This document shows, one piece after another, positions 1 through 64,000 of a stretch of 64,000 bases of DNA; the stretch's first letter is position 1, and every line of letters starts with the position of its first letter. Below the pieces are notes generated by a model that saw only the letters and a list, made by a program, of their open reading frames with translations, made no database searches and was not told where the DNA came from. A program made the translations under genes and the position numbers. Origin of the DNA: Chiloscyllium plagiosum (taxonomy: Eukaryota); NCBI RefSeq assembly GCF_004010195.1, contig NC_057719.1, positions 39,077,506 through 39,141,505 of the forward strand, in the 5' to 3' direction.

Positions 1-126
1 CTGTTGAAGGGCTTTTGCCCGAAACATCGATTTCACTGCTCCTTGGATGCTGCCTGAACTGCTGTGCTCTTCCAGCACCACTAATCCAGATTCTGGTTTC
101 CAGCATCTGCAGTCATTGTTTTTACC
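1..126 (+). mobile_element. Penelope-related terminal repeat fragment with a degenerate hammerhead (CTGTTGA)
   Basis: ctgttgaagggcttttgcccgaaacatcg...gatgctgcctgaactgctgtgctcttccagcaccac; same family as 40311-40400 and 22345-22442. Confidence 0.65.
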
Positions 127-169
127 TAGTCAATTCCATGTGCCTACTTTAATGCCCACTTGGCTGATC

Positions 170-630
170 ATCTCACGGATATTGCCAGGGTTGGAAGATT
201 TGAGCTACAGGGAGAGGCTGGGGCTGTTTTCCCTGGAGCGTCGAAGGCTGAGGGGTGACCTTATAGAGGTTTACAAAATTATGAGGGGCATGAATAGGGT
301 AAATAGGCAAAGTCTTTTCCCTGGGGTCGGGGAGTCCAGAACTAGAAGGCATAGGTTTAGGGTGAGAGGGGAAAGATATAAAAGAGATCTAAGGGGCAAA
401 CTTTTTCACACGGAGGGTGGTACAGGTCTGGAATGAGCTGCCAGAGGAAGTGGTGGAGGCTTGCAACATTTAAGTGCATTTGGATGGGTATATGAATAGG
501 AAGTGTTTAGAGGGATATAGGCCAAATGCTGGGCAAATGGGACGAGATTAGGTTAGGATATCTGGTCGGCATGGACAAATCGGACCAAAGGGTCTGTTTC
601 CATGCCGTACATCTCTATGACTCTATGACT
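170..630 (+). mobile_element. CR1/HER1-like LINE 3' end
   Basis: LPGLEDLSYRERLGLFSLERRRLRGDLIEVYKIM; tail ctctatgactctatgact. Confidence 0.9.
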
Positions 631-1799
631 CTGCTGAGGCACCTAAATCTTTCCCTTCCTTACTTCTCAGAAACCCATCCCTATCCTGAGACTGCAAACC
701 TCCCTTTCTGAATACCTTCTTCCAACCCCAAGCTTGATATCCCTGCCAAGGCCCTAAGAGGTGTCACTGAACTCCCACCCTCTGATTTTCCATTACACTC
801 CTTCCTCACTCCAAAGACTGCTATCATTCAGAAGACATCAGACTCAAAATGTTAACTTTGTTTTTTGTTACACAGATGCTGTGAGACCTGCTAAATTTCT
901 CCAACACCTTTTCTTTTTATAAAAAGCGAAGAACGATTATTTTAATTACTTCGCTGTCTAAGAAGCCTTCAACCTGTTACCTGCTCAGCCTGGAAGACTG
1001 TTGCTATTGCTATACAGTTCCTGGGTGCTAGATATCACTTTTGGACTGGGCTAGAATAAAACCAACATTGGGAACAGAACATAGAAAACACAGTAAACCT
1101 GCTAAACCTTTGTTGGTAGGTTCATTTCAGATTAGTGGTCTTCATTTTTTTTCATTACTCACTACTAAATCTGCATCAACAATCATTTTTGAGAATGTTC
1201 TAGAATACAAACTTTTGCTGTGTTAAAATTTTTCTTCATCTCCTTTCTAATCATTTCACCAATTAACTAAAAATTGTATCCACGGTTACTGATCCTTCTA
1301 ACAGTGGGTTAGGACCTTACAGTAATTACTAGTTAACATGAAAAGAACTAAGTAAAGCATTAATCCCTAGTTTCAGAAGCAAGATTTTTTTTTAAAAATC
1401 AGCTCTTCTCTAGTTAAAATTATTTTGATTTATATTTAAACCTTTGGACAATATGACACTGCCACACATGCAAGTGTCCAGGGTATGATAAACAGTTAGT
1501 GTTGTATATACTTGGACTCATATCTGCTTAAGTCCTGTAGAGCATTTTCAGTGAAAGAACACTATCAAAGCTGAATCTTTTTGACGCAAATTGGAAAATT
1601 AATAGTTATAACCATACAATTGATAATTACTTAACTTTACGCCGATCGACCTATTTCTAGACCTATGACTAGTAAAGGTGATGTGACTGACGAATTTAAA
1701 CAGATAGTCCTCACAATGAAATAAGAAGCTGATTACAGTTCCCACTCTTAATAGGTTAAAAGTTGGGTGGAGCATATCTCCAGTTGTTTATTTAGTCCT

Positions 1800-2050
1800 T
1801 ACCAATTCTGGGAAACTGCCATAACGAGGCAAAGGTGAGAGGTATTGTTTTCTATCGCGGTTCAAAGGGTGGGGAAGAGAAGGTGATAGCGGTTAGAAAA
1901 GGATTCTGCATTTTCCACTTCGGTTCACAAACCTCAGCCGCGCGGAGCTACACCTGGTGTAATCAGCAGCCGGAACTGGCCAAGGGCGAAACTCGCGCAA
2001 GATACTGGCCCCGGGCAGGTTTCCTAAATGACCTGGACCCTGACTGACCG
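1800..2050 (+). promoter_or_regulatory. Candidate CpG-rich promoter and non-coding first exon of exoc3l4
   Basis: Local CpG cluster (tatcgcgg, agccgcgcgg, actcgcgc, ccccggg) in otherwise CpG-depleted, non-repeat DNA, ending at a donor CCG|gtaact (2050/2051). GAS-type TTCTGGGAA at 1806-1814. Confidence 0.55.
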
Positions 2051-2989
2051 GTAACTCGGATGGATTCCAATTTAGCATTGTCCAAGCCTAATGTTCTCCT
2101 CTTATGTTTATATTTTCGTGCCTCCAAATTGTTAACAGTTGTCTTTTTCTACTTCCTTATTACTCAGATTTTGTTTCATTTTCATTTTCATCTTTTACTA
2201 CTAAGCTTCAGTTTTATTTATTTTAAAGAATGTATGTATCATTTGCTGGGTCAACATTTGATTGCCCTCGAGAAGGCGTCAATGTCATGAACAAAAAAAT
2301 TTTGGTTGGAACTTACTGTTTTTTTTAAATGATTGAGGTTTGGTAACATGCTACTTTTTAAGTGTTTGCATTATACTACTGACCTGTCTGATCAAAAACA
2401 TTTTGCCTTTCAATGCTTGCACTACTGAAGTAGGCAGCAACTTCAGAAATCCAAATGTGTAAAAATCCAGAAGTTGCTTTGAATCTGAGTTTCTCCAAAT
2501 GATATACAGTGAGTAAGTTGACCAACCAATTTTTCCAGTTAGTTTCAATGTTAAAAACCTTTGAAAACATTACCTGTCTTTTGCACTTATAATGTTTGAG
2601 TGTAATAGTAATTATCCCAAAACATCACTGTTTTTTGATGGTATTACGATTGTTGAAGCCCCGTGATCAATATCCTTTTAGGAAACAGGAAGTGGGTGGG
2701 GAAGGAGTTGAGGTTTACCATTTGAAAGAAGCTGAACTGGACCAGCTAACTAAATACTATGGTTACAAGAGGATGTTAGAAGCTAGGAATTCTGCATCCT
2801 GTCTTCCCAATGCCGTTCCTTACAAGGCACAAGTCGTGAGGATTATAGAATACTCTCCACTTGCCTAGACAGTTGCAACTATCTTCTGCAAGGGTTTGGA
2901 GAAGTTACTGGAGGAACTGCAACATGACCATTTGGATGGTTTGTATGAAAGCAGTAGTAATTTATTTTTGACATGTGAAGAAAGTTTAA

Positions 2990-5296
2990 AAATCACAGGT
3001 ATTAGGCAAGAACTTTCAAAAGCTGATTGGGGGCAGATGTTCACAGGTAAAGGGATGGCTGGAAAATGGGAAGCCTTCAGAAATAAGATAACAAGAGTCC
3101 AGAAACAGTATATTCCTGTTAGAGGTGAAAGGAAAGGCTGGTAGGTATAAGGAATGCTGGATGACTAAAGAATTTGTGGGTTCGGTTAAGAAAAAGAAGG
3201 AAGCATATGTCAAGTATAGACAAGATTGTTCAAATGAATCCTTCGAGTATAAAGGCAGTAGGAGAAATAAGATAACAAGAGTCCAGCAACAGTATATTCC
3301 TGTTAGAGGTGAAAGGAAAGGCTGGTAGGTATAAGGAATACTGGATGACTAAAGAATTTGTGGGTTCGGTTAAGAAAAAGAAGGAAGCATATGTCAAGTA
3401 TAGACAAGATTGTTCAAATGAATCCTTCGAGTATAAAGGCAGTAGGAGTCTGCTTAAGAGGGAAATCAAGAGGGTGAAAAGAGGACATGAGATAGCTTTG
3501 GCAAATAGAGTTAAGGAGAATACAAAGGGTTTTTCCAAGTACGTTAAGGACAAAAGGGTAACTAGGCAGAGATTAGGGCCCTTCAAATATCAGCAATGTG
3601 ACCTTTTGTGTGGAGCCGCAGGAGATGGGGGAGATACTAAACGAGTATTTTGCATCGGTGTTTACTGTGACAAAGGACATTGAAAGGTAGTGAATGTAGG
3701 GAAATAAATGGTGACATGTTGAAAAGTGTCCATATTACAGAGGAGGAAGTGCTGGATGTCTTGAAGCATAAAAGTAGACAAATCCCCAGGACCTGATCAG
3801 GTGTACTCTAAAACTCTGGGAAGCGAGAGAAGTGATTGCTGAGATATTTGTATCATCGATAGTCACTGGTGAGGTACCGGAAGACTGGAAGTTGGCTAAC
3901 GTGGTGCCACTGTTTTTAAAAAAAGGTGGTAAGGACAAGCCAGGAAACTATAGACCAGCGAGCCTGACATCGGTAGTGGGCAAGTTGTTGGAGCGAATCC
4001 TGAGGGACAGGATGTACCTGTATTTGAAAGGGCAAGGACTGATTATGGATAGTCAACATGGTTTTGTGCTTGGGAAATCATGTCTCAGAAACCTGATTGT
4101 TACTTCTTCAAAACAACTCAAAGAAGATTTGAGGACAAAGTGGTAGAGATGATCCATATGGACTTGATTATGGCTTTCAACAAGGTTCCCCATGGGAGAC
4201 TGGTTAGCAAGGTTAGATCTCATGGAATACAGGGAGAACTAGCCATTTGGCTACAGAACTAGCTCAAAGGTAGAAGACAGAGGGTGGTGATGGAAGGTTA
4301 AGGCCTATGGCCAGTGGAGTGTCATTTTTTTTATATAAATGATTTGAATGTGAGCATAATGGGTTTACTTAGTAAGTTTGCAGATGACACCAGAATTGGA
4401 TGTATAGTGAACAATGAAGAAGTTACCTCCGATTACAGCAGGATTTTGATCAGATGGGCCAATGGACTGAGAAGTGGCAGATGGACTTCAATTTAGATAA
4501 ATGTGAGGTGCTGCATTTTGGGATAGCAAATCTTAACAGGACTTATACACTTAATGATAAGGTCCTGGGGAATGTTACTGAACAAAGAGACCTTGGAGTG
4601 CAGGTTCATTGGTCCATGAAAGTGGAGTTGCAGGTAGATAGGATAGTGAAGAAGGCGTTTGGTATGCTTTCCTTTATTGGTCAGAGTATTGAATACAGGA
4701 GTTGGGAGGTCATGTTGCAGCTGTACAGGACATTGGTTAGACCACTGTTGGAATATTGTGTGCAATTCTGGTCTCCTTTCTACTGAAAGGATATTGTGAC
4801 ACTAGAAAGGGTTCAGAAAAGATTTATAGGATGTTGCCAGGATTGGAGGAGTTGAGCTATAGGGAGAGTTTGAATAGGTTATGGCTGTTTTCCCTAGAGT
4901 GTCAGAGGCTGAGCGGTTAGCTTATAGAGGCTTATAAAATTGTAAGGGACATGGATAGGATAATAGACAAACTCTTTTCCCCGGGGTGTGGGGGAGTAGT
5001 CCAGAACTAGAGGGCATAGGTTTAGGGTGAGAGGGGAAAGATATAAAAGAGACCTAAGGGGCAACTTTTTCACGCAGAGGGTGGTGCGTGCATGGAATGA
5101 GCTGCCAGAGGATGTGGTGGAGGCTGGTACAATTGCAACATTTAAAAGGCATTAGATGGGTATATGAATAGGAAGGGTTTGGAGGGATATGGGCAGAGTG
5201 CTGGCAGGTGGGACTAATTTGGTTTGGGATATCTGGTCAATATGGACGTGTTGGACCGAAGGGTCTATTTCTGTGCTTACATCTCTATCACTGTAT
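2990..5296 (+). mobile_element. 5'-truncated CR1/HER1-like LINE with decayed RT and an internal 184-bp duplication
   Basis: DWKLANVVPLF, PGNYRPASLTSVVGKLLE, SQHGF, SKFADDT, LYRTLVRPLLEYCVQFWSP; frameshifted. Confidence 0.92.
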
Positions 5297-6195
5297 GATC
5301 AGGTTATCGTCCAACAGGTTTACTTGATAGTACAACATTTGGACTGCTGCTCCTTTGTCAGGTAGCTAGTGGGGCAGGATCATAGGGCACAGAACTTATA
5401 GTAAAAGATCAAAGTGTCATACAACTGATGCAACGTATTGAACAAATCTATATTGCTGTTAAGTCTCTAATCGCTTGGAATTGGGATGCAGGTTTTGATT
5501 GATTAACATATAAATCCCAAACCTTCCTTCAAGTCATGTTCCTGAGATAATTTGAGGTTTTACCAGTATTTTTAAAAAAGTAACATCTCAGCTCAGTGCC
5601 CTAAAGGTGTCAGGTTAGAGTCTATCTGTATCCCAACCTTGAGTCACACTGGTTCTACTTACAAAATAGGCATTTATAAAATGTCACATGGACTGACTGC
5701 GTGCTTTTTGAACAAAATAAAATATATCTGGATATGTAAATTCATCCCATAGATGTGTTTGTGTGTGAGTATGTGTAAATAGAACCAGTCTGACTCAAGA
5801 TTGGGATACAGACAGCCTCTAACCTGACACCTTTAATATATTGTCTGAGCTGATGTGTCACTTTTTTTAATACAGATAAAGCCTCATGTTATCTCGGTAA
5901 CATGACTTGAAAGAAGGTCTGGGATTTAATCAATCAAAACCTGTGTCCCTATTCTAATTGATTAAAGACAACAGCAATCTAGGTTTGTTCAATACATCGC
6001 ATCAGTTGTATGACGCTTTGATCTTTTACTATAAATTCTGTGTCCTATGATCCCGCCCCACTAGGTACCTGATGAAGGAGTAGCGGTCTGAAAGCTTCTA
6101 CTGTCAAATAAACCTGTTGGACTATAACCTGGTGTGTGATTTTTTTTTTTTTAAACCTTGTCCACCCCAGTCCAAAACTGACACCTTCACATCAT
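5297..6195. mobile_element. Non-coding fold-back element of two inverted Penelope-type terminal repeats
   Basis: 5297-5662 is the reverse complement of about 5773-6133. It shares its terminus (hammerhead-like ctgatgaaggag...gaaagct, then aaacctgttggactataacctgg) with the PLE at 47220-49525. Confidence 0.75.
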
Positions 6196-7121: not shown

Positions 7122-7150
7122 TGGCTGGCTGGCTGGCTGGCTGGCTGGCT
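7122..7150 (+). repeat. (TGGC)7 microsatellite inside a CR1 RT
   Basis: gattggctggctggctggctggctggctggctgtctggcag. Confidence 0.9.
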
Positions 7151-9528: not shown

Positions 9529-9877
9529 GGTTTTGAGGTTCATATAAGGCTGTCTACCATTTTTCTTTAAATTAAGTTTCATTTAAAATTAGTTGAATCT
9601 TGATTGACTGACTGATTGCAAATTTATTTAATGCTCCATGTGTGATTATGGAATCCAAAGTAGACAAAGAAGGAGATTGGAAGAACACAGCAAGCCAGGC
9701 AGGTTTTGAGGTTCATATAAGGCTGTCTACCATTTTTCTTTAAATGTAAGTTTCATTTAAAATTAGTTGAATCTTGATTGACTGACTGATTTGCAAATTT
9801 ATTTAATGCTCCATGTGTGATTATGGAATCCAAAGTAGACAAAGAAGGAGATTGGAAGAACACAGCAAGCCAGGCAG
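9529..9877 (+). repeat. Tandem duplication, 2 x about 173-176 bp
   Basis: ggttttgaggttcatataagg...caagccaggca at 9529-9701, repeated at 9702-9877 with small indels. Confidence 0.9.
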
Positions 9878-9949
9878 CATCAGGAGGTGGAGAAGTTAAC
9901 ATTTCTGATAACTCTTCTTCAGGGATATCTCACTTAAAGTCACAGATTA

Positions 9950-15800: not shown

Positions 15801-18800
15801 TTCTGAGACTTAATGCCACACCACACATTTACAGATCAGGCCATTGAAGGAGCTTACAAATTTCTTTACTGAAAACCTACTCTGTTTATGATCAAATCTT
15901 TCTATCTCGGAAGGAGTTCCTAATACAGCAGAAACACTAGAATTTGAAATATTCTCCAAAGCCTTCATTCCTTATCACGTATTGTGTGCACGTTTATCCT
16001 TGGAAACCCAACAGAGAAATAAAAATTACAACAAGTTGTTAATACAAATAGTACACAAAATGTAATGCTTTTAAATTACTTACTCTATCTAAATGTTTTG
16101 CAGTAATGGAAATAAACCAGTTAATATCCCAAAACCAGTTACTGGAGGCAAATAAAAATATAAATAAATTGGAAGAAGAGTTGCTCCGTGAAAAAGAGCA
16201 TGAAAAAGATGAAAAATACCGCCAGGAATACACAAAAAAAGTTCGCGATTTTAACTTACTCTGCGACAAGCTTGCTGAGCAAATAATATCCATAGTCACA
16301 AATTCATTCATTATAGCTAAACAAGACAGCAGAAGTTTGTGTATGGCATCAAAGGTTGTTGAACTGGAAGAAGCAGCAGACAAAAAATGGGAAGAAAGAA
16401 TGAATCCTCCTGGCACTAACTGTTTCAGACGTCCTCGGAAGTGGAACGATTTGTGGAAAGAAACAGTTTATAAAAGTGTGCAAGAAAGAATAGCTACTGT
16501 GCCTTTACTTACAAAGCAGCAGGATGTAAAATGGCTTGCATTGCACTTGGAACAACTTCAGCAAACTATTTTGGAAGACCTCAAAATTGTGAAAGATTTC
16601 ATACAAAAATGTTACCCTGAAAATTTCAAGGTTTTTAATGTCTATATAGAATGCTATCACTGTGCAATATCTTCTCACCTGGAACGCATCCAACAGAAAC
16701 ATCTTGAATTGAATGAACTTTATTTGTTTCTCAACTGGGTTCTTCATATCTACCAAAGGTATGTTATCTATATTTTATCATTCATTTCTCTTTTGTATCA
16801 TTCAATAAATTATGAATTCATGTACAATACACAGTTTTACAGTAACTATAGCTATACTGCTACTAATATAAAGACCAGATTCTGCAGATGCTGGAAACCT
16901 GAACGAAGACCAAAAAAACCTGAAAATACATAGCATCTCGTTGTGGAGAGAGAATCAGAGTTAACATTTCAAGTCAATGACCTTTAGTTAGAAGAGTTTC
17001 TAAACAATAAAGGTAAAGTCGCCACAGTCCTTCTGGACCATAATGTGACGACTAGTGGTGATTTAACCTGAGGGTCACCACACCTCAGACAAGAGGAGAG
17101 GTTGCAGAGGGGACTTCTTCATAGTAACCACAGCCAGTGTGGGAATTTAACCCACACGTTGGCATCAGTCTGGATTGCAAACTAGCCACCCAGTTAACTG
17201 AGCTAACCAACGCCCATGTCATAGTATACCCCGGAAGACAGTACTGAACTTGTACAAATACACCTATGTAGCCAGCCTCTGGAATCTCGTGTGGTGTGAA
17301 AAGCTAAACTTTCACACTTACAGGCTCAGCAAAGATGCTTGACAATCTGACATTGATCTTTTTCAAAAATTTGTTTGATGACTTAGAGAAGAAAGTTTGC
17401 TTTTATATTATTATCAAAATATGCTTCTTTGCCTATTGATCACATTCTTGCTGAATTTCCATTGACTTCACTTCTGATCCACTGAATCTGACTATTTTTT
17501 CACTTGCTCAATAAGTAAACTGAACTTGTATAACAGTTGCAAGTAGTTCATAGAGGGTCATCAAATTATATCTTTGCTCCCACTAAGAGCTCAACATATG
17601 TTTTATTTATTACTTAATTAGCATGTTTTTTTTAAACTTAATATTTTCTATTTTTCTCCTCCCTATGGTCTGCATTCATAGTTACCACGATACTGAACAG
17701 GGAGCCTGCTTTTAGGTCCCAGCTAGTTGTTCTGTTACTAACAACAAGGGAGTTATCAAAATGACATATCATTCTCGCTATGCTATTTCCTACCCATGGA
17801 AACAAACATTGATTCCACCACTATAGAATTCAATTTTCATGTGAATTTTTTTATTTTGCAGGGATTTGACATGACCACACCAGGTATAGCAGCAGAGTGA
17901 TCCATAAAAGACAAATTTTTGGTTTTTCAAATTTTCCAATTTAAAAATGATCAGCAAAGCTTTTGTCTTAAACTAACCATCCCAGGGAAAAGACTTTCCA
18001 TTTATCCTATCCGTGCCCCTCGTGATTTTATAAACCTCCTATAAGATCACCCATCGGCCTCTGACTTTCCAGGGAAAACAGTCCCAGCCTATTCAGCCTC
18101 TCCCTATAACTCAAATCCTCCAACCCTGGCAACATCCTTGTAAATCTTTCTGAACCCTTTCAAGTTTCACAACATCTTTCCGATGGGAAGGAGACCAGAA
18201 TTGCACACAATATTCCAACAGTAAGCGAACCAATGTCCTGTACAGCCAAGCATGACCTCCCAACTCCTGTACTCAATACTCTGACCAATAAATGAAAGCC
18301 TACCAAATGCCACCTTCACTATCCTATCTACCTGCGATTCCACTTTTAAAGAGTTATGAACATGTACTCCAAGGTCTTGTTGTTCAGCAACACTCCCTAG
18401 GACTTTACCATTAAGTGTATAAGTCCTGCTAAGATTTGCTTTCCCAAAACGCAGCACCTTTCATTTATCTAAATCTGCCACTTTTCAGCCCATTGACCCA
18501 TCTGGTCATGATCCTGTTGTAATCTGAGGTAACCTTCGCTGTCCACTGCACTTCCAATTTTGGTGTCATCTGGAAACTTACTAACTGTACCTCTTATGCT
18601 CACATCCAAATCATTTATGTAAATGACAAAATGTAGTGGACCCAGCACCGATCCTTGTGGCACTCTGCTGGTCACAAGCCTCCAGTCTGAAAAACAACCC
18701 TCCACCACCAACCTCTGTCTTCTACCTTTGAGCCAGTTCTGTATCCAAATGGCTAGTTCTCCCTGTATTCCATGAAATCTAACCTTGCTAACCAGTCTCC

Positions 18801-21800
18801 CATGGGCAACATTTTTGAACGCCTTACTGAAGTCCATATAGATCACATCTACCGCTCTGCACTCATCAATCCTCTTTGTTACTTCTTCAAAAAACTCAAT
18901 CAAGTTTGTGAGACATGATTTCCCAGCACAAAGCCATGTTGACTTTCCCTAATCAGTCCTTGCCTTTCCAAATACATGTAAATCCTGTCCCTCGGGATTC
19001 CCTCCAACAACTTGCCCACCACTGACGTAAGGCTCACTAATTTATAGTTCCCTGGCTTGTCTTTGCCATCCTTCTTAAACATTGGCAATATGTTAGCCAA
19101 CCTCCAGTCTTCCAGCACCTCACCTATGACTATCGATGATAAAAATATCTCCCCAACAGGCCTAGCAATCACTTCCCTAGCTTCCCACCGAGTTCTCGGG
19201 TACACCTGATCAGGTCCTGGGGATTTATCAACATTAATGCGTTTCAAGATATCCAACACTTCCTCCTTGAGATCCTTCTTCAAAATAGAAGTTTGGGCTT
19301 GATGGTAGGGGGAGAAGAATATAAAGGTTTGGGATAGTGTAATTGGCAGGAGAGAATAAATAGTAAAAATATAGAAGAAAAAAGCAAAAGGATAAGCAAT
19401 CTTTGCAGTAAAGAAACAAAGCAATTGCTCCATTATGTGTGAATGGCAGAAGTATGCATAGCTGTATCTCTGGGTAAAATACATTAAACAAACTTCGGAC
19501 CATATTTCAAAAGATAAAGAATCAGACGGGTGTGGGGGTGGGTGGTCAGAATTCACCATTTGAAATAGTTGAACTCCAGTCCTGAAGGCTGTAAACTGTT
19601 TGATTGGTAATTTGAAGATAACATCCTGTTCTTCGAGCGTGTATTGAGCTTTATTAAAGCAATGCAGCTACCTTGCTTCAAGTCTGAAGAAGAACCCTAT
19701 TCAACTCAAAATGTTAACTTTCTCCACAAATGCTGCCAAAATAGCACTTGCTCTTTTTATTTTGGTTTACCAGCAACTGAAATATTTTGCTTTTATCAAT
19801 TATTGCCTTAATTAGCCTCTAATTCTTCAAATAGATCAGGTTACTTCATTTGATATACCAGTCTGTGTGATATTCTGAAGATCAGGTGCCTAAATGTACC
19901 ATTTTGTTTGCAGTGGTGATGTTATGAGTCATCCTGATCTTTCACCAGAGGTGAATATGAAAGAACTTGGACCTTTGTTAGACCAAGAGGTTATGGAAAA
20001 TGTCATGGACAAATATGCTAAAGCATTGAAGGTATGAATTAAGTGATGAATAGTAACACTCAAGTAATTTACTAAAGGTAAGCAACATTTTACAAGTGCA
20101 GGATGGCTTAAATCAAGACCCTCTTGCAAAATGCCTTCCTCATTTTGGTCAAATGTTTTGCATAACAAGGTTATTGTGCCCAAACTTGATCTCTCATACA
20201 GAAGGTGTGACGCTTTTATTATTGACAGCTCTTCTGGAACTGGAGGATATGGGTCAATGAGCAGAGTAAGAAGGATTTGTTCTCAGCTTAAGAAAATTAA
20301 ACTTGAAACTAGGTCTCCAGCAAAAAATCATTTTCTTCAAGCCATGAAAAAAATGAAATCTTGCAGAGTTGGGAGTGGACAGTCAGGTGACCAATGTATC
20401 TCCACTCTGACATTTTTTTATCAAGGTTGTCATAACTATCAGGACCATTCATTATACTTTTTAGGGGTGGGGAAGCAGTGTTTGGAAACCAGCACAGCTT
20501 CGTAATTTAACTCTGCAGCCCCTAAATCAAAGTGGCTTTTTTTTTACTTGAGCACAAGGACATTGGAGGGTTGCTGCAATATGGACAGAATTGCATTTAT
20601 GTCACTGGTTTTACAACTTGAGTTACTTTTTCAATTGTTCATGCTCATCTCTAGTCATTTATGATCTTGATTAATTGACCTTGAAGGTGGTGATGACATG
20701 CCTTCAACTGTTGCTGCAATCAGTTTTGTGCAGGTATACCCACAATCTTGTTAGGGAGGGAGTTTTGGGGTTTTGAACCTGTGGCACTGAAGGAAGAGAA
20801 ATGTAGTTCTAAGTGGGATGGTGACTAGCTCGGATGGGAATTTGCAGGTGATGGTGTTCCCATGTATCTGTTGTTCTTGTCCTGCTAGATGGTAGTGTCA
20901 TGGTTTGGAATGTGCTGTTAATGAATTTATGTAATGCACCTTAAAAATGGTATACTGCAACAATGCTGTCACTTTAAAAAGGTTATTTTGGGCCTTGTTT
21001 TTTTTTTTTTGAACAGATTGTAAAGGCAGAGATAACAAAGTCTAGGAAGTAACAGTTTAACAATGGAAGGGGATTGGACAGTTCTCCCAGTTCAGGTCTT
21101 TCCTGTGGTTTTTATTTTAGCTGTAGTAGTCGCAGTGTGTTTTGACTCCAGGGAGTTGTAAGCTTCAGTAAAGAACTCCTGACATTTTCCCTGAAATCTC
21201 TCTCTGAAAGTTGTTTCCTTCTGCCTGTAAGAATCTGTTGAATTTAAGAACATAAGAACTAGGAGTACGAGTAGGCCATCTCGCCTTTGGAGCCCACTCC
21301 ACTTTTCAATGTGATCATGACTGATCTTTCCGTGGCTTCAGCTCCACTTACCCACCCTCTCACCATAACCCTTAATTCCTTTACTGTTCAAAAAATGATC
21401 TCTTAGCTTTAAAAACATTTACTGAGGAAGCCACTGGCATGGTGGCTCAGTGGTTAGCACTGCTGCCTCAGTGCCAGGGACCAGGGTTTGATTCCAGCCT
21501 TGGGCAACTGTCTGTGTGGAGTTTGCATATTCTTCCCCTGTCTGTGTGGGTTTTCTCCCACAATCCAAATATGTGCAGGTTAGGTGGATTGCCCATGCTA
21601 ACTTGCCCAAGGTTTTAAGGGATACGCTTTGGAGGGTCAGTGTGGACCTGTTGGGCCAAAAGGCCTATTTCCACACTGTCGGGATTCTACTTCACTGGAC
21701 ATGGAATTCCACAGATTCCCAACCCTCTGGGTGAAGAAGGTCCTTCTCAATTCAGTCCTAAGTGTGCTCCCCCTAATTTTGAGGCTGTGCCCTCCTGTCC

Positions 21801-39800: not shown

Positions 39801-42800
39801 ACAAGTCTACCTGATCATGTTCATTGCTCTCCGAGGAGTTGGAGAATCGAAACTTGCCAAGTTTTCTTTGAGATTCTGTAGACTAATGTGTGAGTTTCAG
39901 GTAATACCAGTTCATCATTTCAGGGTTTCTGAATAACTGATCTATTCTGTTGAAGATCTCCTCCTTGGCTCAGGTCTTGATGAGACCACATCTTGTTGTG
40001 TTTCCATCTTTGGTCTCCTTTTCCTAAGAAATGCTGCTCGGTAATAGAGGTGTGCAACGAAGTTTTACTAGACTGATTCCTGGGTGGACTTCACCAGTTT
40101 CCTCATTTTCCCTCCCCCACCTTACCCCAGTTCCAAACTTCCAGCTCAGTGCCATCCTCATGATCTTTCCCACCTGTCAATCTTCCTTCCCACCTATCTG
40201 CTCCACCCTCCTCTCTGACCTATCACCTTTACCCCTTCCTCCAGCCAACTATTGCACTCCCAGCCCCACCCCCTCCCATTTATCTCTACACCCCTGAGGC
40301 TTCCAGCCTCATTCCTGATGAAGGGCTCCTGCCCGAAACGTCGATTTTCCTGCTCCTCAGATGCTGCCTGACCTGTGCATTTCCAGCACCACTGTATTCT
40401 TGATTCCTGGGATTGCAAGGCTGATGTATGAAGCAAAATTGAATTGAGTAGGATTAAATTCACTGGTATTTGGAAGAATGAGGGGAGAGATTACTCCCAG
40501 GGTTATGAGCTAGTGAGGGCAGGAATAGGAGGATAAAGCAAATGAATGCATGGCTGAGGAGTTGGTGAATGGGAGAAGGATTCACATTTTGGGATCATTG
40601 GAAGCTTTTTGGGGGTAGAAGTGACCTGTACAAGAAGGACTGATTGCACCTATATTGGAAGGGGACTAATATACTGGCAGGGAGATTTGCGAGAGCTGCT
40701 CAGGACTTAGACTAGTAAGATGGGGGGTGGGACGCAAGGAGATCGGAAAGATTTCAATCCGAGACTGGTACAGTTGAGAAAAGAAGTGAGTCAGACAGTC
40801 ATGGGAGGCAGGGACAAAGCACAGAACAAGGTAGGACTGATAAATTAAACTGCATTTATTTCAATGCGAGAGGCCTAACCGGGAAGGCAGATGAACTCAG
40901 GGCATAGATCGGAACATGGGACTGGGATATCATAGTGATTACAGAAATGTGGCTCAGGGATGGACAGCTTAATGTTCCAGGATACAAATGCTATAGGAAG
41001 GACAGAAAGGGAGGCAAGAGAGGAGGGGGAGTGGCGTTTTTGATAAAGAATAGCATTATTGCTGTCGTGAGGGAGGATATTCTCAGAAATACATCCAGGG
41101 AAGTTATTTGGGTGTAACGGAGAAATAAGAAAGGGACGATCACCTTATTGAGATTATATTATACACCCCCTAATAGTCAAAGAGAAATTGAGAAACAAAT
41201 TTGTAAGTGTTATCTGTAAGAATAATAGGATGGTTATGATCGGGGATTTTAACTTTCCAAACATAGACTGGGACTGCCATAGTGTTAAGGGTTTAGATGG
41301 AGAGGAATTTAAGTGTGTACAAGACAATTTTCTGATTCAGTATGTGGATGTAGCTACTACAGAAGGTGCAAAACATGACCTACTCTGGGGATATAAGGCC
41401 CAGGACCTGATCAGATGTACCCTAGAACTCTGTGGGAAACAAGGGAAGTAATTGCTGGGGCTATTGCTGAGATATTTGTCTCATCGATAGTCAGATGAAA
41501 GGTGCCAGAAGACTGGAGGTTGGCTAACGTGATGCCACTGTTTAAGAAAGGTGGTAAGGAGAAGCCAGGGAACTATAGACCAGTGAGCCTGACGTCTGTG
41601 GTGGGCAAGTTGTTGGAGGGAATCCTGAGGAACAAGATTTACAAGTATTTGGAAAGACAAGGACTGATTAGGGATAGTTAACATGGCTCTGTGCGTATGA
41701 AATCATGTCTGACAAACTTGATTGAGTTTTTTGAAGATGTAACAAAGAGGATTGATGAGGGCAGAGTGGTGGATGTGATATTTGTGGACTTCCGTAAGGC
41801 ATTCGACAAGGTTCCCCATGGGAGACTGGTTAGCAAGGTTAGATCTCATGGAATACAGGGAAAACTAGCCATTTGTACACAGAACTGGTTCATTGGTAGA
41901 AGACAGAGGTTGGTGGTGGAGGGTTGCTTATCAGACTGGAGGCCTGTGACCAAGCGGAGTGCCACAAGGATCAGTGCTGGGTCCACTACTTATCATCATT
42001 TATATAAATGATTTGGATGTGAGCATAAAAGGTATAGTTAGTAAGTTTGCAAATGATACCAAAATTGGAGATGTAGTGGACAGTGAAGAAGGTTACCTCC
42101 GATTACAACAGGATCTGGACCAGATGGGCCAATGGGAAGGACGCCACTTTGACTGAGACAACACATCCATCCTAGGACAAGCCAAACAAAGACACGCATG
42201 AGAATTTCTGGAAGCGTGGCATTCCAACCGGAACTCTATCAACAAACACATCGAGTTAGACCCCATCTACCACCCCCTGAGAAAAGGAACAGGAAGTGAC
42301 TTCACTACAGGAAATGACATCACCAACCCAAAGAAACCCAAATGTATAAATAGAAAGCAGGAATTATCAGCAGTGTTTTGCCTGAGGCCCACTGAAGATG
42401 TAACCTAGTACGGGGACAAAACGTCTGGAAATGAACCTTCCAGCTCAGCAAGCAAACCTATATCCAACAGATTGACCTGATTGCTGAGACCATTTGTAAG
42501 ACTTGTTTTATCTATTTCTGCCATTGATGCATAACCTGATAGCTTGCAATCAATTGCACTTTGCTCATGAATATGTTTATAATGTTGACTTTGTGTTTTA
42601 GAGAGTAGAAGATCCACTAAGATAGTTTAGTGCTTGTTTTGTTTGATTCTTTTTTTATTTTATATAGTAGTAATTTTTGTGTTGAATCTCATGGTTTCAT
42701 TCTTCCAGTAAATAATGAAATTTCAGGTTTCTTATTTTCGAAAAAAGTTGTTATTGATTATAAGAAGGTCAAGGCACTTCACAGGAACATTTATAAAACA

Positions 42801-45800: not shown

Positions 45801-48800
45801 CGTATGTCCACTCCAAAACTTATCTCTTTTTATCTTCCTTTTCATTACCTACCTTTTGTTTCATCAGTAAATTTGTCAACTGTACATTCCATCAATTCAT
45901 CCAAATCAGTTTTAGGAATTATAAGTAGTTAAGGTTCCAGCACTAATCCGAATGGAACACCATTCATTGCAATCTCCCATCCTGAAAAAGGTCAGTTTTT
46001 GCCCACTCTCTAGTTGGCTAACAGTAAGCAATCTTCAATCCATCCCAATATTCTGTGCTCCTACACCATAAAGTTTTATTTTCTGCAATAATTTTTGATG
46101 TGGCACTTCATCAAATGCTTTCTGGAAATCTAAGTACATTTACAGTTCCCCTGTGTCCACAGGACATGTTATTTCCTCAAAGTACTCCAATTTGGTAAAT
46201 TATGAATTTTCCAGTGCGAAAGCACATTGACTCTGCCTGATTACGTTGAATTTATCTAAAGCCCCTGCTATAACTTCTTTCAATGTAGCCTCTAACATTT
46301 TTCTCTTGTCAGATGTTAAGCCAACTGGCTTGGAGTTTCCTGGTTTCTGTCTTTTTTCCCTTTTTTAGAATTGAACTATTATAAAATGTATTTCTATTAT
46401 AAAAATATAAACTAACTAAATAAATTATCTTCCAATCTAATCGGCCCTTGCCCAAATAAAGGTTAAATCTTTCAGCCCTGTCACTGACTGATTTTATATC
46501 TGTGTTAGCTGTGCAGCCAGGAACATAAGGAATCTTAATTATCCTCATTGAAAAGTTTTCAGTCCTAGTCTGCATGCTTTCAATCTTTTTATCATTTTTG
46601 TTACTCATCTTTTGAAAATAATGTAAGGTCATAAATAATGAAATGCCGTGCCATTCAGTATTTCCTTTCATTCAAAGTGGTAGGAGGCTACAACTTCAAG
46701 TTGCAGGTCAGAGGAAGAATCCTTCATCGCATTTAATAAAAAAAAAAATTTGAATTTATACTTGAGGTGCCATAACACCTGTAAAACCAAGAGCTGCAAA
46801 GTGGGATTATTTGGGTCTTTTTCAGTTGACATAAGCACAGTAAGCAATTAGCTTCCGTGTATTCTATAAATATTACTTTATTTTTGGGTGTAAATTTATC
46901 ACTGTTAACAGGGTATTTGGTCATTTAGTCTTTATCAATGTTTATGCTTTATGTGAGCCTCCTATCCTACTTCAACCTTGCAAGTCATTCTGTTACAATG
47001 CACGATTCATCAGCACAAATTGGCTATTACGTGATTGATGAATTGTGGACGTTGTTTGGGTAATGCAAACTTTCTACTGAAAGGATATAGTGATTTTCTA
47101 TTAGCAGTCTTTTACAGGATGATTTTCCATAGCAGTTTTCATAACGTGATTTCCTATAGCGCAAGGTTGCAGAGGAACACAACCGCCATGTTACAGCAGG
47201 ACAACCTGTATCTACATAATTTGGAGATGCCGGTATTGGACTGGGGTGTACAAAGTTAAAAATCACACAACACCAAGTTGTAGTTCAACAGGTTTAATTG
47301 GAAGCACTAGCTTTTGGAGCACTGCTCCTTTATCAGGTGGTTGTGGAGTACACAATTGTAGGACACAGAATTTATAGCAAAAGTTTACAGTGTGATGTAA
47401 CTGAAATTATACATTGAAAAATGCCTTGATTGTTTGTTAAGTCTCTCATCTGTTAGAATGACCATGTTAGTTTCACTTCTTTCATACGTAAATCACAAAA
47501 CTTTTTTTAAAAGTTACCTTCTTAGGTTAACTGTAACAATTGGTGTCAGCCCAGATAAGATGTTGAAGGTGTTAGCCCCCTGTGTTCTGTTGTCTGTGCC
47601 ATAATGTTTAAACTGATTCTAATCTAAAAAATGAGTTCAGAGTCTTGCATGGATTCATGCAGTTTTTGAGCAAAGTACATTGTAAATCTGCAAGTACAAA
47701 TTCAACCCACAAACGTGTTTTTTATGTGTGTGTGTCTGTCTCTGTCTGTCTGTTTGTGAGAGAGAGTGTATATGTGTATGTGTGAGTATAAAGGGATCTA
47801 AGTCTGTGTGTGTATGTAGGAGTCTCTGTGTGTGTGTGTGTATAGTGCAATGATGGTCACCTGTAGTGTGACATGAACCTAAGGTCCCGGTTGAGGCCCT
47901 CCCTATGGGTACCGAACTTAGCTGTCAGCCTCTGCTCAGCCAATTTTCGCTGCTGCCTGTCCCGAAGTCCGCCTTGGAGGATGGTCACCTGAAGGTCCAA
48001 GGTTGAAAGTTCTGGACTGCTGAAGTGTTCTCCAAGTAGAATGGAACACTCCTATCTGTTGATTGTTGTCCGGTGCCCATTCATCCGTTGCCATAGCCTC
48101 TGCTTGGTTTCACCAATGTACCATGCCTCGGGGCATCCTTGTCTGCAGTGTATGAGATAGACAACGTTGGCTGAGTCACATGAGTACCTGCCAAGCACAA
48201 GGTGGGAGGTGTCCCCACGCGTAATGGTGGTATCCATGTCCACACTCTGACACATCTTGCAGTGCCTGCCATGACAGGGTTGTATGGAGTTGTCCTGAAA
48301 GCCGGGCAGTTTGCTATGGACAATGATCTGTTTGAGGTTTGGTGGTTTAAAGGCGAGCAGTGGAGGTGTGGGGAAGGTCTCGGCGAGGTGCTCATCCTCA
48401 TTGATAATGTGTTGCAGGTTGTGAAGAACATGGTGTAGTTTTTCAGCTCCTGGGAAGTACTGGACAACAAAGGGTACCCTGTCAGCTGCAGCACGTGTCT
48501 GTCTCCTGAGGAGGTCATTACGGTTCCTTGCTGTGGCACGTCGGAACTGGCAGTCGATGAGTTGCGCATCGTACCCCGTTCTTATGAGGGCATCCCTGAG
48601 TACTTCCAGGTGCCCGTCATGTTCCTCCTCATCTGAACAGATCCAGTGTACATGTAGGGCTTGTCTATAGGGGATGGCTGTTTTAATGTTTTGGGTGGAA
48701 ACTGGAGAAGTGCAGCATTATAAGGTTGTCTGTGGGCTTGCGGTAAAGTGTGGTGCTGAGGTGCCCATCCTTGATGGAGATGCATGTGTACAAGAATGAG

Positions 48801-51800
48801 ACAGATAGTAGAGAATAGTCCATGGTGAGTTTGATGGTGGGATGAAACTTGTTGATATCACTGTGTATATTTATCAGTGACTCCTCGTCATGGGTCCAGA
48901 AAAAGAAAATGTTGTTAATGTATCTGGTGCATAATGTTGATTGGAGGTCCTGCATAGATAAGAAGTCTTGTTTGAACCTGTGCATGAAGATGTTGGTAAA
49001 TGTGGTCTCACTCACTCATTCACTCTCACACATCCTCACTCATTCACTCTCATACATCCTCACTCTTACACATCCACAGTCTCTCTCAGATACTCTCAAC
49101 ATTACACTCACACACACATATACACTCTCTCACAGACACTCCCAACTCCACCCCCACCCAAACACAGACACACACACACACAAACTTTGTGGCACAGACA
49201 ACAGAACACAGGGGGCTAACACCTTCAACATCTTATCTGGGCTAACCTGAGTTAACCTGAGAATGTAATTTTCAAAAAAGGTTTTGTGATTTACATTTTG
49301 AAAATAGTGAAACTATCATGATCATTCTAACAGATGAGAGACTTAACAAACAATCAAAATATTTTTCAATGTATAATTTCAGTTACTTCACACTGAAAAC
49401 TTTTGCTATTAATTCTGTGTCTTACAATTGTGTACTCCACAACTACCTGATGAAGGAGCAGCGCTCTGAAAGCTAGTGCTTCCAATTAAACCTTTTGGAC
49501 TATAACCTGCTGGTGTGTGATATTTTTTAATTATCTTGTTAGCATTATCAACAACAGCTTTTATTTAGATAACGCTTTCAGTACAATAAAATATCCTAAG
49601 GCAGTCCACAGGAGTGCTTCAACCAACATGTAACACTGTTTGGAAATGGGATATAAAAATAGATTCAGGAATTTTACCCTTTCCATATTTACCTTTGGCA
49701 AGTGATTCCACTATTAGAAGTATTCAATTTAATCTCTTGTTTACACTTTTGATGTCACCATTGAGAATTAAGTATGCTGGTAAATTGGGACTTGGTTAAA
49801 TTTGGAGTAATTATTTATGGAGGGGTAAATTATTATATGTTGGAGTAAATGTTTTATTATTTAAAATACCACACTTTATTTTCATTACGATTAAACAGAC
49901 TAATTTTGATTTATTTTTCAAGCTATCATCAGGACCTCGTAATGAGCAAGCCAAATGTAGTGCCTGTTTTGGTGGTAGGCCTCAACACCTGTATTGATTT
50001 GAGGTAATTTATTCTAATGACTGACTGACTGATTATTAAAGAGCATAAATAACATTATATTTCTGTTAGTATCATTCTTGAAATCTGGAATTAAGAGTCT
50101 ATTGATCACCATGAATCCATTGTCAATTGTCGAAAAAGCCCATCTGGTTCACTCATGTCCTTTAGGGAAGAAAACTGCAATCTTTACCTGGTCTGGTCTA
50201 CATGTGACTCCAGATCCACAACAACATGGCTGACTCTTAATCACCCTCTGGGCAATTAGGGATGGGCAATAAATACTGGCTCAGCTAGCAACGCCCACAT
50301 CCCATGAATGAATAAAAAATAAGGAAGAGTTAGAATGCCAAAATAATTCATTTTCAATTAACTGCTTTGAAATGTAGCTGCTGTTCCAGTGTACAAATGG
50401 ATCTAAACAAAGAGTGAGAAAATGCCCCAGTACTTTGGGCTCTTTTTTAATGATTATTGATCATTAGAAAACTGGTAGAATTCCCTTCCTCCTCGTCAGA
50501 TAATAACTGTTGGATCTTTTATGTCCAACTGGACCTTAATGTAACACTATGTTAGTCTTGCATTAAATTGTCAGCCCTGAAAATGTTCTGAAGGCTTCAG
50601 GGACACGTTAGGCACTGGAGTGGACCAGCACCTTCAGCATGCTCTGCCATTCAATTAAATGTGGTCTGCAACTTAATTCTGTCTACCTATTGCCCAATAC
50701 ATTAACTGTGAATTACTCTACATGGAAGAGTTTCAAATTTCAACTACCCTTTTGGTATTTTTTCGGCGGCCGTTGGAGGGGGAGGAGCAACAGCAAGGGC
50801 CAGTGCCCTGACAGGAAGGTAAACTTTGTAAATATAAAAACTTGTCTCGGACGTTTCAGGTATATATTTTGGCAGCAGCTGAATCCCGAGACACTATGTG
50901 TAGTGTCTCCCACCTACCCTCCACCTCTAACCAAAAAAAGGACTCTCGTGTTGCTAAAGTAAGGTGTTTGAATTGATATTTCTTGTGTATCGGTGATTAA
51001 TTAAAAGTTTACTATTAGTTGGTTAATTGAATAAGACGACAGAGAAGTACTAGAAATTATTTAAGTCATATATTTGTATAATTAATTAAATAAGTAGAGC
51101 TGGCTGGACAGGTGATGTGCTGGAGCTGTATGATGTGGGAGCGGGCTGATCCCATTGTGAACGGCAGTGACAACATCTGCAGCAAGTGTTCATTGTTGGA
51201 AGAACTCCGGATCAGAATTGATGATCTGGAATCTGAGCTTCAAACACTGCGGCACACCCGGAAGAGTTACATGGACGCTTTGTTTCAGAAGACAGTCACA
51301 CCCGGCAGATTATGTAATTCAAATTCAGTTAATGATCAGGAACAACAGAGTATAATTGTAAGTGAGGCAGGTAGGGGGATTCTGAGTTCAGGAGTGGAAG
51401 AGTCTCCACACTTGATCTTGTCCAACAGGTGTGAGATTTTTGTTCCCTGTATGGATGAAGAAAAGGGCTGTGGACAGGATGAGCCAGCTGACCACTGCAC
51501 CATAGTGCAGACGGCCATTTAAGAGGGGGTAGCAAAAAGACAAGTAGGGATATAGGGGATTCAGGGGACACTGGATTCTATAATTTGGGGAACATGTAGT
51601 ATCTTTTGTGAGCAGGATTGGGAGTCCCGCATGGTGTGTTGCCTGTCTGGTGTCAGGGTGCAGGACATCTCTGACTGGCTTGAAAGGATATTGGAGCGGG
51701 AGTGAGAGGATCCAGTTGTTGTGGTCCATGTTGGCACTAATGACATAGGCAAAGCTAGGAAGGAGGACCTGTTTGGGGAGTATCAAGCACTAGAAAGGAA

Positions 51801-62274: not shown

Positions 62275-62636
62275 TTAACCTGAGAGTTTAAACGTATTTT
62301 GAACTGACCAAGCATCTTTGGGCACAATGTATTTAATATACATGCCTCCAATATATAGTGGCTATGTTGATTTAAAAGTTTCAGTTATTTACTTATTTTA
62401 AAATCTGTGGGTCCACTGTCCACACTTCTCTTTGCTATTGGTCTTAAAACATTGATTACATTGACGTGATTTAATTTGCATTCAAACTGCCTCTATATGT
62501 TAATAAGAGAGTCAGTTTTGTTGAAAGGTAGGATTTGAACATTTTGGTATCTTGATTCTATAGTAATGAATTCTGTCAGATAGCAAAGAAAGTTGAAAGC
62601 CTCCGAACGAATTCCATACCCTTTGCCTGCTGGGGA

Positions 62637-62642
62637 AATAAA
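62637..62642 (+). terminator. Candidate polyadenylation signal AATAAA for exoc3l4
   Basis: First AATAAA I found after the stop codon (about 360 nt downstream); ATTTA motifs lie in between. Confidence 0.4.
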
Positions 62643-63289
62643 CAAAATTCTGGTCATGCACCATTCTCTTTTATAAGGAATCATCGACCGTTTCTGTTCC
62701 AATATTATTGAGTGCAACTACTAAGAGGAGTACGGGCTAGTCCAGAAATAGGGACATCTGTGGAAAAACAGAATCAGAGGAAGATCTTAAGCTTTAATTC
62801 ACTTCAGGTCACTTAACTTAAGCAAAACTTCACCTTTGTTATTGAGACCACAAACCTTGATAATTGGTGATGTGAACTGATGGAAGTATGTTTGACCTTC
62901 ATTTGAGATTACAGTCTTCTTTCATCCAACTTTAAATGGAAGCTGTTGCAGCAAAAATGAAATTTTGTCTGCAGTACATAATTGGGTTCCTTCGTTCACG
63001 TAATGGTAACTTTGATGTTAAAATAAGATGCAATTGAAAGAATAACATTTAGGTGCAGCACCAAGTAACATCATAAATTTTCTATAATTTGCTTAACACT
63101 GTTAAACAAAAGTCCTCTAGTGACTAAGTAAAACTTAATGCAGAAACAAAGGAAATATTCAGATGAATAATTTTGGTCAAAGAGATGGTTTAAGGGCCAG
63201 CAGTGAGGATGCGGAGAGTTATATCGGATGATTCTGATACGCTTGATCTATTTTACTAGTACTTTCGAGATATATTTCTTACTTTATGT

Positions 63290-63685
63290 CAGAGGCTGTG
63301 GGGTGACCTTAGAAGTTTACAAAATTTTGAAGGGCATGGATAGGATAAACAGACAAAGTCTTTTCCCTGGGGTGGGGAGTCCAGAACTAGAGAGCATAAG
63401 TTTAGGGTGAGAGGGGAAAGATAGAAGAGATCTAAGGGGCAACTTGTTCACACAGAGGGTGGTATGTGTATGGGATGAGCTGCCAGAGGAAGTGGTGGAG
63501 GCTGGTACAATTGCAACATTTAAAAGGCATTTCGATGGGTATATGAATAGGAAGGGTTTGAAAGTAAATGGGCCGGGTGCTGGTAGGTGAGACTAGATTG
63601 GGTTGGGATATCTGGTCAGCATGGATGGGTTGGACCGAAGGGTCTGTTTCCATGCTGTACGTCTCTGACTGTATTACTCTATGTC
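63290..63685 (+). mobile_element. CR1/HER1-like LINE 3' end
   Basis: EVYKILKGMDRINRQSLFPG; ggaccgaagggtctgtttccatgctgtac tail. Confidence 0.9.
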
Positions 63686-63929
63686 TAACAATCTCCGTTT
63701 TAAAATGTGAAATATCCAGCACGGTCAGGCTTCCAGACTTGCATCCTTTGTGTCAAGAAAAAAGCTTCCATCTTGTCTCAGTCTCACTTCACCTATTAGT
63801 CCATCTCAAATAGTAATTAGTCTGAAGCCAGCAGAATGATGAACCAAAAGCACTGACCGACAGCACAGTAGAAATCTGTTATTTAGGCATTAAAGAAAAT
63901 AGAAAGGTTTGTGAAGGTTTGTAGGTCAG

Positions 63930-64000
63930 GTTGAGGTTTAGGGTGTAGGTTTGCTCGCTGAGCTGTAGGTTTGATATCCAGATGTTTCATTACCTGGCTA
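63930..64000 (-). mobile_element. Penelope-type terminus with the 3' half of a hammerhead-like motif (runs off the window)
   Basis: Reverse complement gtaatgaaacatctggatatcaaacctacagctcagcgagcaaacctaca matches 42415-42465. Confidence 0.6.

Follow-up and report, generated by a model that had tools for sequence, protein, structure and literature searches.

Within a stretch of 64,000 nucleotides from Chiloscyllium plagiosum (NCBI RefSeq assembly GCF_004010195.1, contig NC_057719.1, positions 39,077,506 to 39,141,505 of the forward strand), which we call the window and which is part of contig 10 of a 3.56-Gb assembly, a short motif recurs that is almost certainly the minimal hammerhead ribozyme (min-HHR) of Penelope-like elements (PLEs). 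Judged by their sequence features, the copies are further members of the class described in 2014 (Cervera and de la Pena 2014, PMC4209133), and the original prediction, made from the letters of the window, was right in linking minimal type I hammerheads, whose stem III is a palindrome without a loop, to PLEs. We propose that most dispersed copies are probably short run-off complementary DNAs (cDNAs) of an uncut, capped RNA that starts at the ribozyme. Among the observations behind this reading are a pile-up of the 5' ends of copies at stem I and a TATA-like box about 30 bases upstream. We did not find it in the literature searched, which covered PLE starts, cap G and truncation as well as shark (Chondrichthyes) Penelope hammerheads, subscription papers, Repbase notes and supplements excepted.

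Positions in the ribozyme are numbered here relative to the core C3 (C3 = 0), and the genome was sampled as 158 evenly spread 10-kb stretches (1.58 Mb) drawn from the 36 largest contigs. Six families, A to F, were found genome-wide, where at least three had been predicted. When 5' ends were mapped from anchors located 3' of the cut site, after copies beside gaps or stretch edges had been dropped (20 of family A, 1 of B and 3 of C), 171 of the 268 at-risk copies of families A, B and D were found to begin at the first bases of stem I; an end between -9 and +2 was seen in 107/165 copies of A, 37/68 of B and 27/35 of D. The rate was 4.5–6.4% per base in this zone and 0.4–1.3% elsewhere, and among young family A copies 28 of 41 begin in it. 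An artefact of unrecognised upstream subfamilies was ruled out as the cause by these young copies, by the 5' flanks of pile-up copies, which are unique (shared in 2 of 77), and by target duplications: of 55 non-inverted pile-up copies of A, 12 have one, and a displaced control gave 1. A splice acceptor at stem I was rejected as a general cause, because AG fits D, E and F but not A or B. In family E, 7 of 100 copies among the matches listed continue into the upstream consensus (a hand tally). Ends at the cut site itself (five bases) were near background, with 12/221 in A, 0/83 in B, 0/28 in C and 1/53 in D; young A copies show a possible two-fold excess there (6/59), and none of the core-intact matches listed ends at the cut site. 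One locus, L170 (+, about 5070–5110), carries a direct duplication of the ribozyme whose joint leads from +30 back to -4, as a template jump at stem I would give.

The long copies carry a box at a regular distance upstream of this zone: TTTATC at -35 to -37 in 23 of 35 family A copies, and TATAAA at -40/-38 in 15 of 21 family B copies, at -35/-37 in both family E copies and at -53/-47 in family C copies. The distance from the box to an A in a pyrimidine-A context, located at -4 in A, D, E and F and at -8 in B, is 30–32 bases, which is the usual spacing between a TATA box and an initiator. Searches of the whole genome with the young A motif gave 4,418 copies with a base other than C at -5 and 11,559 with C. 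A control placed at +7 gave 951 matches against the 4,418 at -4; it is a weak control because its matches are mostly fold-backs and point mutants, with about 12 unique-flank rows. Reversed-pattern controls gave 0 in all 12 genome-wide pattern searches.

The base before the start A was tallied by hand for A, B and E among the first 100 matches listed per family. It is G in 61 of 100 rows of A and in 60 of 100 rows of B, 23 of the latter being long point mutants; among the unique-flank rows of the same matches listed, G was found in 23/39 for A and 22/36 for B against 26% expected (p about 1e-5 each). Where full-length L1 copies have an additional G at the 5' junction, it has been interpreted as cap copying (PMC11702581). 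The observed pattern would result if a cap-derived C at the cDNA end annealed to a G in the target; a target preference could produce it in part.

RNA reads were examined in one poly(A) single-cell run, in which 1,446 of 12.96 million reads fell on one family A copy. Reads cross the cut site in both orientations, the sense/antisense trend across it reverses between two references, and 261 reads break off at -4 into unrelated flanks. A possible trace of cutting was found at locus L211:1627-1654 (-), where 24 bases matching the 3' end of U6 are joined exactly at the family A cut site; beyond 430 bases of element body the insertion contains another joint at the cut site. The likeness to U6 was recognised through an Rfam-matched U6 fragment in locus L067, and Rfam gave no match with the 24 bases alone; the L067 fragment (6475–6520, +; 3' part of U6, E 1.4e-7) is joined to sequence like a short interspersed element (SINE), with no ribozyme family. 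Since RtcB joins U6 to 5'-OH ends (PMC6789731), the exact position of the L211 joint favours occasional cutting. The locus resembles the chimeras of U6 and LINE-1 made by RtcB (Moldovan et al. 2019, PMC6789731), in which the U6 3' end with a U run is placed on retroelement RNA and a 5'-OH is needed, and it differs from those described in the available part of that paper in that its partner begins at a predicted hammerhead cut and in that it is one locus.

Several observations weigh against a transcript start at the ribozyme. Family C shows no pile-up at stem I (0/28 at-risk copies), and just 3 of its 14 pattern loci begin near -18. In many A copies the match extends as far as -5 to -8, so that the start is not one single base. 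No G excess was found in family E, where 8 of 32 unique-flank rows among the matches listed have G against 29% expected, and in the random sample the base before -4 was G in just 1 of 8 non-inverted A copies. Several of the B rows classed as unique-flank turned out to consist of an inverted arm plus filler. In each of the 7 A insertions that a clean target duplication directly abuts, the target itself contains the G, mostly as part of GAT; the G may therefore be templated, and an endonuclease or annealing preference could add to the pattern. This target check used 14 A and 16 B rows with G picked from the lists, 17 of these 30 being without a duplication of at least 8 bases. The poly(A) single-cell run revealed no point where many molecules begin or end, in a type of library that cannot reveal capped or 5'-OH ends. 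The U6 joint is a single locus with 24 matching bases. Finally, the Penelope promoter of Drosophila virilis is TATA-less and internal, with a start well upstream and an intron before the ribozyme (Schostak et al. 2008, PMC2377424, in the part available).

Some of these points would suit a different origin of the pile-up, which we regard as unlikely, namely a stall or template switch of reverse transcription on leaving the folded ribozyme or a ribozyme-held RNA dimer, after which the cDNA end would anneal to a favoured target such as GAT or fold back via stem I. The absence of a G excess in E fits this explanation, as do the G and the next two bases that most clean A insertions have in common with their target, the inverted joints that in some cases connect -4 to +28 through stem I (L074, L095), and the preference of the anole enzyme for ATT (PMC11167929). 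A stall at the fold does not explain why family C, with the same fold, lacks the pile-up (0/28), nor why that of B lies at -8, outside a stem I of 3 pairs yet 30 bases from TATAAA; moreover, truncation is at background level both at a second ATT (+29) and in the AT-rich stretch that lies upstream of B.

The ribozymes lie in the end repeats (pseudo-long terminal repeats, pseudo-LTRs) of Neptune- and Poseidon-type PLEs. Remnants coding for a GIY-YIG endonuclease lie directly upstream of it in families A, B, C and D; none was seen upstream of E and F, and both have the downstream stem-loop and the tail in common. A CxxC linker, a zinc-finger-like trait of Neptune elements located between reverse transcriptase and endonuclease (PMC8557442), is present in fragments linked to A and B and missing in those linked to C, the families that were compared for this trait. 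The order reverse transcriptase, then GIY-YIG was found in broken fragments (L049, L162, L033, L118). Pfam placed GIY-YIG below its cut-off and RVT_1 above it for one fragment, and Atlas groups a family A fragment with animal HTH/GIY-YIG clusters. Locus L090:6525-7085 (+) holds an open frame built of a 10-residue tandem repeat. Two 3' ends, 36–38 bases apart, occur in all families and correspond to the PLE tail (about +88/+126 in A, +84/+120 in B and +76/+112 in C). Between +44 and +110 families A, D, E and F have a common element, GATGCTG ... CAGCATC, whose complementary arms span the near 3' end and which is a candidate protein-binding or priming stem-loop.

For the following comparisons we draw on the available parts of the papers cited. 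In Poseidon PAc of the anole (Anolis carolinensis; Frangieh et al. 2024, PMC11167929) two tail-defining starts of reverse transcription lie about 110–125 bases behind the core, the enzyme starts internally at these sites, needs sequence of the open reading frame (ORF) behind them and takes uncut RNA, and hammerhead cleavage is dispensable for insertion in vitro. The present elements resemble PAc in the two tail sites, in the presumed use of uncut RNA as the main template, in the lack of RNA ends at the cut site, and in that the family C ORF starts inside the ribozyme (ATG at +6, with the frame open through the tail). They differ in that families A and B are of Neptune type, that the ORF of subfamily A1 begins behind the tail, that internal starts were demonstrated in vitro for PAc and are deduced here, and that the PAc work did not assign 5' ends to a start site. 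A pseudo-LTR serving as promoter, inverted 5' arms, palindromic joints and an optional tail are common to these copies and the Penelope elements of Adineta vaga (Arkhipova et al. 2013, PMC3846280) and D. virilis (PMC2377424), and the rotifer pseudo-LTR likewise has a putative TATA box and initiator. Head-to-head palindromes were attributed to self-priming on an antisense template in the rotifer (PMC3846280); those seen here fit a cDNA end that folded back on reaching the 5' end of the RNA. Inverted arms were found in 21 of 76 family A pile-up copies. Because assembly gaps often adjoin young copies, the counts of long and hairpin copies are lower bounds.

According to the mechanism that we propose, RNA polymerase II would start at the initiator-like A, at -4 in A, D, E and F and at -8 in B, and the family C start would lie near -17 to -23. 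Like the anole enzyme in vitro, reverse transcriptase would prime inside the RNA at the two tail sites, which in A are located at about +88 and about +126, and priming in the 5' pseudo-LTR would run off the RNA 5' end after 95–135 bases. The run-off end would join the target, often via microhomology, to leave a solo cassette, or it may fold back instead to form a head-to-head hairpin. Longer insertions would need the end of the ORF upstream of the start, and thus a tandem transcript or a ribozyme-made circle; a circle model for PLE insertion was put forward in PMC4209133. Slow dimer- or protein-assisted cutting at GUC, CUA or GUU would remove the capped leader of about 32–37 bases and leave a ligatable 5'-OH end, most likely for circularising unit-length RNA for such longer insertions. 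Selection on the ribozyme would act only in master lineages, and solo genomic copies, lacking promoter box and partner, would mostly be inert passengers in host transcripts. We also entertain, tentatively, a more far-reaching possibility, in which the hammerhead of vertebrate Neptune-type elements would be the very 5' end of a capped TATA/initiator transcript and work as a switch, uncut RNA giving strong-stop cDNAs and cut RNA giving the circle for full-length transposition. Abortive strong-stop cDNAs would then have filled the genome with about one million cassettes and hairpins, cutting would decap the RNA and license ligation, and U6 chimeras would be a fossil record of cutting in the germ line.

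The copies and related features of the window are as follows.
1..127 (+): family A cassette, ribozyme and long tail; A6U, palindrome broken (ACAU); gap directly upstream.
829..920 (+): relic of family D with a decayed core.
5300..5539 (-): family B arm, C3 at 5361; G8A, G12A, CUA lost.
5900..6193 (+): family B arm with long tail, C3 at 6069; complete core, breaks in both stem I and stem II, CUU in place of CUA.
9850..9926 (-): D-like relic with C3 at 9922 and part of stem II deleted.
16880..16992 (-): relic that looks D-like on visual inspection only; CTGAAGA gone, missed by the profile scan.
19684..19745 (+): D-like relic that keeps the first half of the core but neither G12 nor the palindrome.
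22349..22443 (-): short family A cassette of about 95 bases, C3 at 22439; core intact, pair 2.1-1.1 lost.
22528..22554 (-): partial second family A copy that ends inside GAAA, within a 113-base local tandem duplication.
22886..22925 (-): hammerhead of family C with C3 at 22922; descriptor passed, predicted cut after 22889, ATG at +6.
22926..23237 (-): 3' part of a Poseidon-type element, with what is left of a broken C-terminal GIY-YIG coding sequence; it lies 5' of the family C ribozyme.
31878..31963 (+): relic of family A, truncated at +2 and without G12 or the palindrome.
32060..32270 (both strands): head-to-head pair of family D arms, C3 at 32184 (-), shorter arm (+) from about 32186.
40279..40284 (+): TTTATC box, a predicted TATA-like element 32 bases 5' of the A at -4.
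40311..40346 (+): hammerhead of family A with C3 at 40315; descriptor passed, predicted cut after 40342.
42140..42470 (+): family C copy with GIY-YIG C-terminal remnant, TATAAA at 42345, C3 at 42392; G12A.
47213..47609 (-): family B pseudo-LTR with long tail, C3 at 47336; G8A, G12A; TATAAA about 40 bases upstream.
47860..48717 (-): remnant of Neptune-type coding sequence, broken, which contains the CxxC linker and a GIY-YIG motif (YIGET) and lies 5' of the family B pseudo-LTR.
49182..49530 (+): inverted family B pseudo-LTR with the short 3' end, 87.5% identical to 47258–47609.
63903..64000 (-): tail and 3' ribozyme half of a family C copy whose C3 is situated 14 bases outside the window; broken palindrome (ACAU).

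All 11 sites that the original prediction had assigned to families are family-derived sequence at or near the positions it gave, and the dispersed motifs are real and far above chance, with 3 descriptor matches in the window and 90 in the 158 sampled stretches against a shuffle mean of 0.0. The descriptor consists of core, palindrome and UH with at least 4 pairs in stem II and at least 2 in stem I. Most of the named copies are damaged: core, palindrome and UH are complete in 5 of the 11 (22439 and 22922 on the minus strand; 40315, 6069 and 49447 on the plus strand), and 3 pass the whole descriptor (40315, 49447 and 22922), so that the expected number of more than ten motifs in 64 kb is true of relics and not of intact ribozymes. 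In the damaged copies G8, G12, A6 or the palindrome is gone, and the changes are often located at CpG. The window contains about 16 copies in total, 3 of them intact, which is typical of the sampled genome.

Some assignments had to be revised. CUGAAGA does not mark family C, which has A, G or U at position 7, and family A is mostly CUGAAGA (37 of 45 sample matches); the family C site near 63980 reads CUGAUGA, with its 5' half beyond the window. The A6U change read at 1–30 is present, together with the broken palindrome, and a run of N lies directly 5' of window position 1 (locus L233). CTGAAGA relics reported near 830, 19683 and 32160 are decayed copies as supposed, but of family D, the fourth one, whose cleavage site is GUU (C3 at 19684 and 32184 for the latter two); near 16960 CTGAAGA is absent. 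Newly added are the relic at 9922, the second D arm that faces 32184, and the partial copy at 22528–22554, a duplicate of the ribozyme in 22349..22443.

The cassette at 22349..22443 starts at stem I (-4/-5), stops at the near 3' end, has its predicted cut after 22412, and is bounded by a 9-base target duplication, AGGGACATA; the sequence around it is presumably a CR1-like fragment. The family B arms at 5361(-) and 6069(+) form an inverted pair, 5361 being the left arm, and TATAAA lies 39 bases 5' of C3 in the arm at 6069. Positions 47213–49530 are an inverted family B insertion flanking a broken endonuclease remnant; its plus-strand ribozyme occupies 49444–49478, with a predicted cut after 49475, and the remnant 47860..48717 matched no Pfam family at E 0.001. 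At 40315 the pseudo-LTR extends upstream of the ribozyme, and the coding remnant 22926..23237 reads the same text as loci L096 and L118.

A very large genomic population, as had been suspected, was confirmed by extrapolation: the 90 descriptor matches with a C3-G8 core in 1.58 Mb correspond to about 203,000 copies (163,000–249,000), and 448 recognisable family copies in the sample correspond to about one million. The sample also contained 4 descriptor matches with a U3-A8 core, 1 with G3-C8 and 0 with A3-U8. Exact pattern matches in the whole genome numbered 93,596 for family A, 16,659 for B, 1,648 for the N7 = A variant of C alone, 1,509 for E, and 866 for D and F together. Published counts, obtained with a different descriptor, are about 4,000 in coelacanth and 9,000 in Xenopus tropicalis (PMC4209133, available part); with this difference in descriptors, the present value of about 200,000 is roughly 20 times the highest of them.

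Such numbers could suggest that the short cassettes are non-autonomous SINE-like or retrozyme-like elements with short masters of their own, amplified in trans by PLE protein, an explanation to which we attach a low probability. It draws on the very high copy number, on internally deleted direct tandems of about 280 bases (L209/L210), and on the origin of animal retrozymes from PLE pseudo-LTRs (bioRxiv 10.64898/2026.07.22.740005). The cassettes, however, match the subfamily variants of long copies base for base, lack the upstream box, and have ragged 5' ends with 5' flanks shared in only 2 of 77. Animal non-LTR retrozymes, in the available part of the same preprint, likewise have type I hammerheads derived from PLE pseudo-LTRs and many monomers, and 1 of 9 tested dimers cleaved; unlike their tandem arrays with a ribozyme per unit, the copies here are mostly solo or inverted, and the tandem-array trait is absent from the window. 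Direct mini-tandems are a minority found only among 790 tail-body junctions: loci L209, L210, L007 and L228 are internally deleted direct mini-tandems of A1 with two ribozymes per strand, retrozyme-like, with a unit of about 280 bases in L209 and L210. Lengths of the 5' pseudo-LTR in 30 tail-body loci, which are mostly internally deleted mini-tandems, were not decisive.

The individual copies decay neutrally, CpG fastest. In 122 family A copies non-CpG positions of the core diverge by 0.01–0.07, like non-core positions, and CpG positions by 0.13–0.26; selection therefore acted on master elements and not on the copies, and the supposed selection on RNA structure is borne out by stems that covary between families and not by the dispersed copies. 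It is accordingly very improbable that the dispersed copies are a working ribozyme population under such selection that cuts host transcripts, even with some 200,000 descriptor-passing copies, motif-bearing reads common in poly(A) RNA and one U6 joint at the cut site, because the neutral decay includes core positions, most copies are solo or inverted and so lack a partner in cis, in vitro tests found monomers to be inactive and dimers to be weak (PMC4209133, available part), and reads cross the cut site both ways with a strand trend that reverses between references.

The structure of the families agrees with that of published min-HHRs. The core CUGANGA ... GAAA with its NUH triplet is present in 6/6 family majorities (in E as U3-A8), stem III was loopless in all 78 sample matches when longer forms were permitted, and positions 15.2–16.2 are self-complementary (CG in A, C, D, E and F, GC in B). 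One extra base between 9 and 10.1, as the original prediction had proposed to allow, was the best fit in 41/41 matches, and a G10.1-C11.1 pair occurs in 6/6 majorities. The stems covary across the six family majorities: of 54 cells 53 pair, 15 extra pair types occur, and none of 20,000 shuffles reached this score, which is no probability since the families are related. Pair 2.1-1.1 is C-G, A-U or U-A depending on the family, and E swaps the tertiary 3-8 pair to U-A (21 of 22 copies); family E also has palindromic stem I arms (loci L177-L188), and many of its copies are perfect head-to-head hairpins centred on stem I. Type I form, absence of loop III, the palindrome 15.2–16.2, the extra base, G10.1-C11.1, and several families per genome in mostly single dispersed copies are all traits of metazoan PLE min-HHRs in the available part of PMC4209133, where the U3-A8 variant occurs in Schistosoma; the class, its extra nucleotide after A9 and its genome-wide dispersal were thus already published. 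The present motifs differ in a stem I of 2–4 pairs only, and in that copy ends and a transcript start are related to the ribozyme here and not in that part of the paper. ViennaRNA folds of monomers and dimers showed stems I and II and were uninformative on the catalytic fold.

That the motif is due to chance, or was kept for promoter or coding reasons and not as a ribozyme, has a negligible probability: family C overlaps the ATG and an open frame (L118 translation), so that part of its conservation may be coding, the region is located at the predicted core promoter, an Rfam scan of the window found no hammerhead family at E up to 10, and in plain folding the active dimer is not the minimum-energy form for most families, but compensatory changes affect stems I, II and III and the tertiary 3-8 pair across six families, shuffles give nearly none, and homologous motifs cleave in vitro (PMC4209133, PMC11167929, available parts).

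Other features of the window include two host gene exons on the plus strand, one at 16052–16930 (Pfam Sec6, E 1.4e-27) and one at 12425–12862 that matched no Pfam family; most ribozyme relics of the window are probably intronic. Broken reverse transcriptase fragments of the long interspersed element (LINE) type, which we take to be CR1-like, lie at 18469–18948 (-), 53117–54612 (+) and 3276–4786 (+), with RVT_1 in two of them. Two local tandem duplications, each with near-identical units, at 22417–22640 (about 113 bases) and 9606–9877 (about 98 bases), cut through a ribozyme cassette, and both could be real or assembly artefacts.

Because the motif class is known, the motifs alone would be ordinary, and it is the copy number and the start at the ribozyme that add value. 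About 200,000 intact-looking and one million decayed copies constitute a statistical record that small genomes lack, and this record bears on the role of the hammerhead in PLEs. If the RNA does start at stem I, the ribozyme can only remove a capped leader, and the short solo copies and head-to-head hairpins would be run-off products. Such a start would also give precise predictions for cap analysis of gene expression (CAGE), for in vitro reverse transcription and for end capture.

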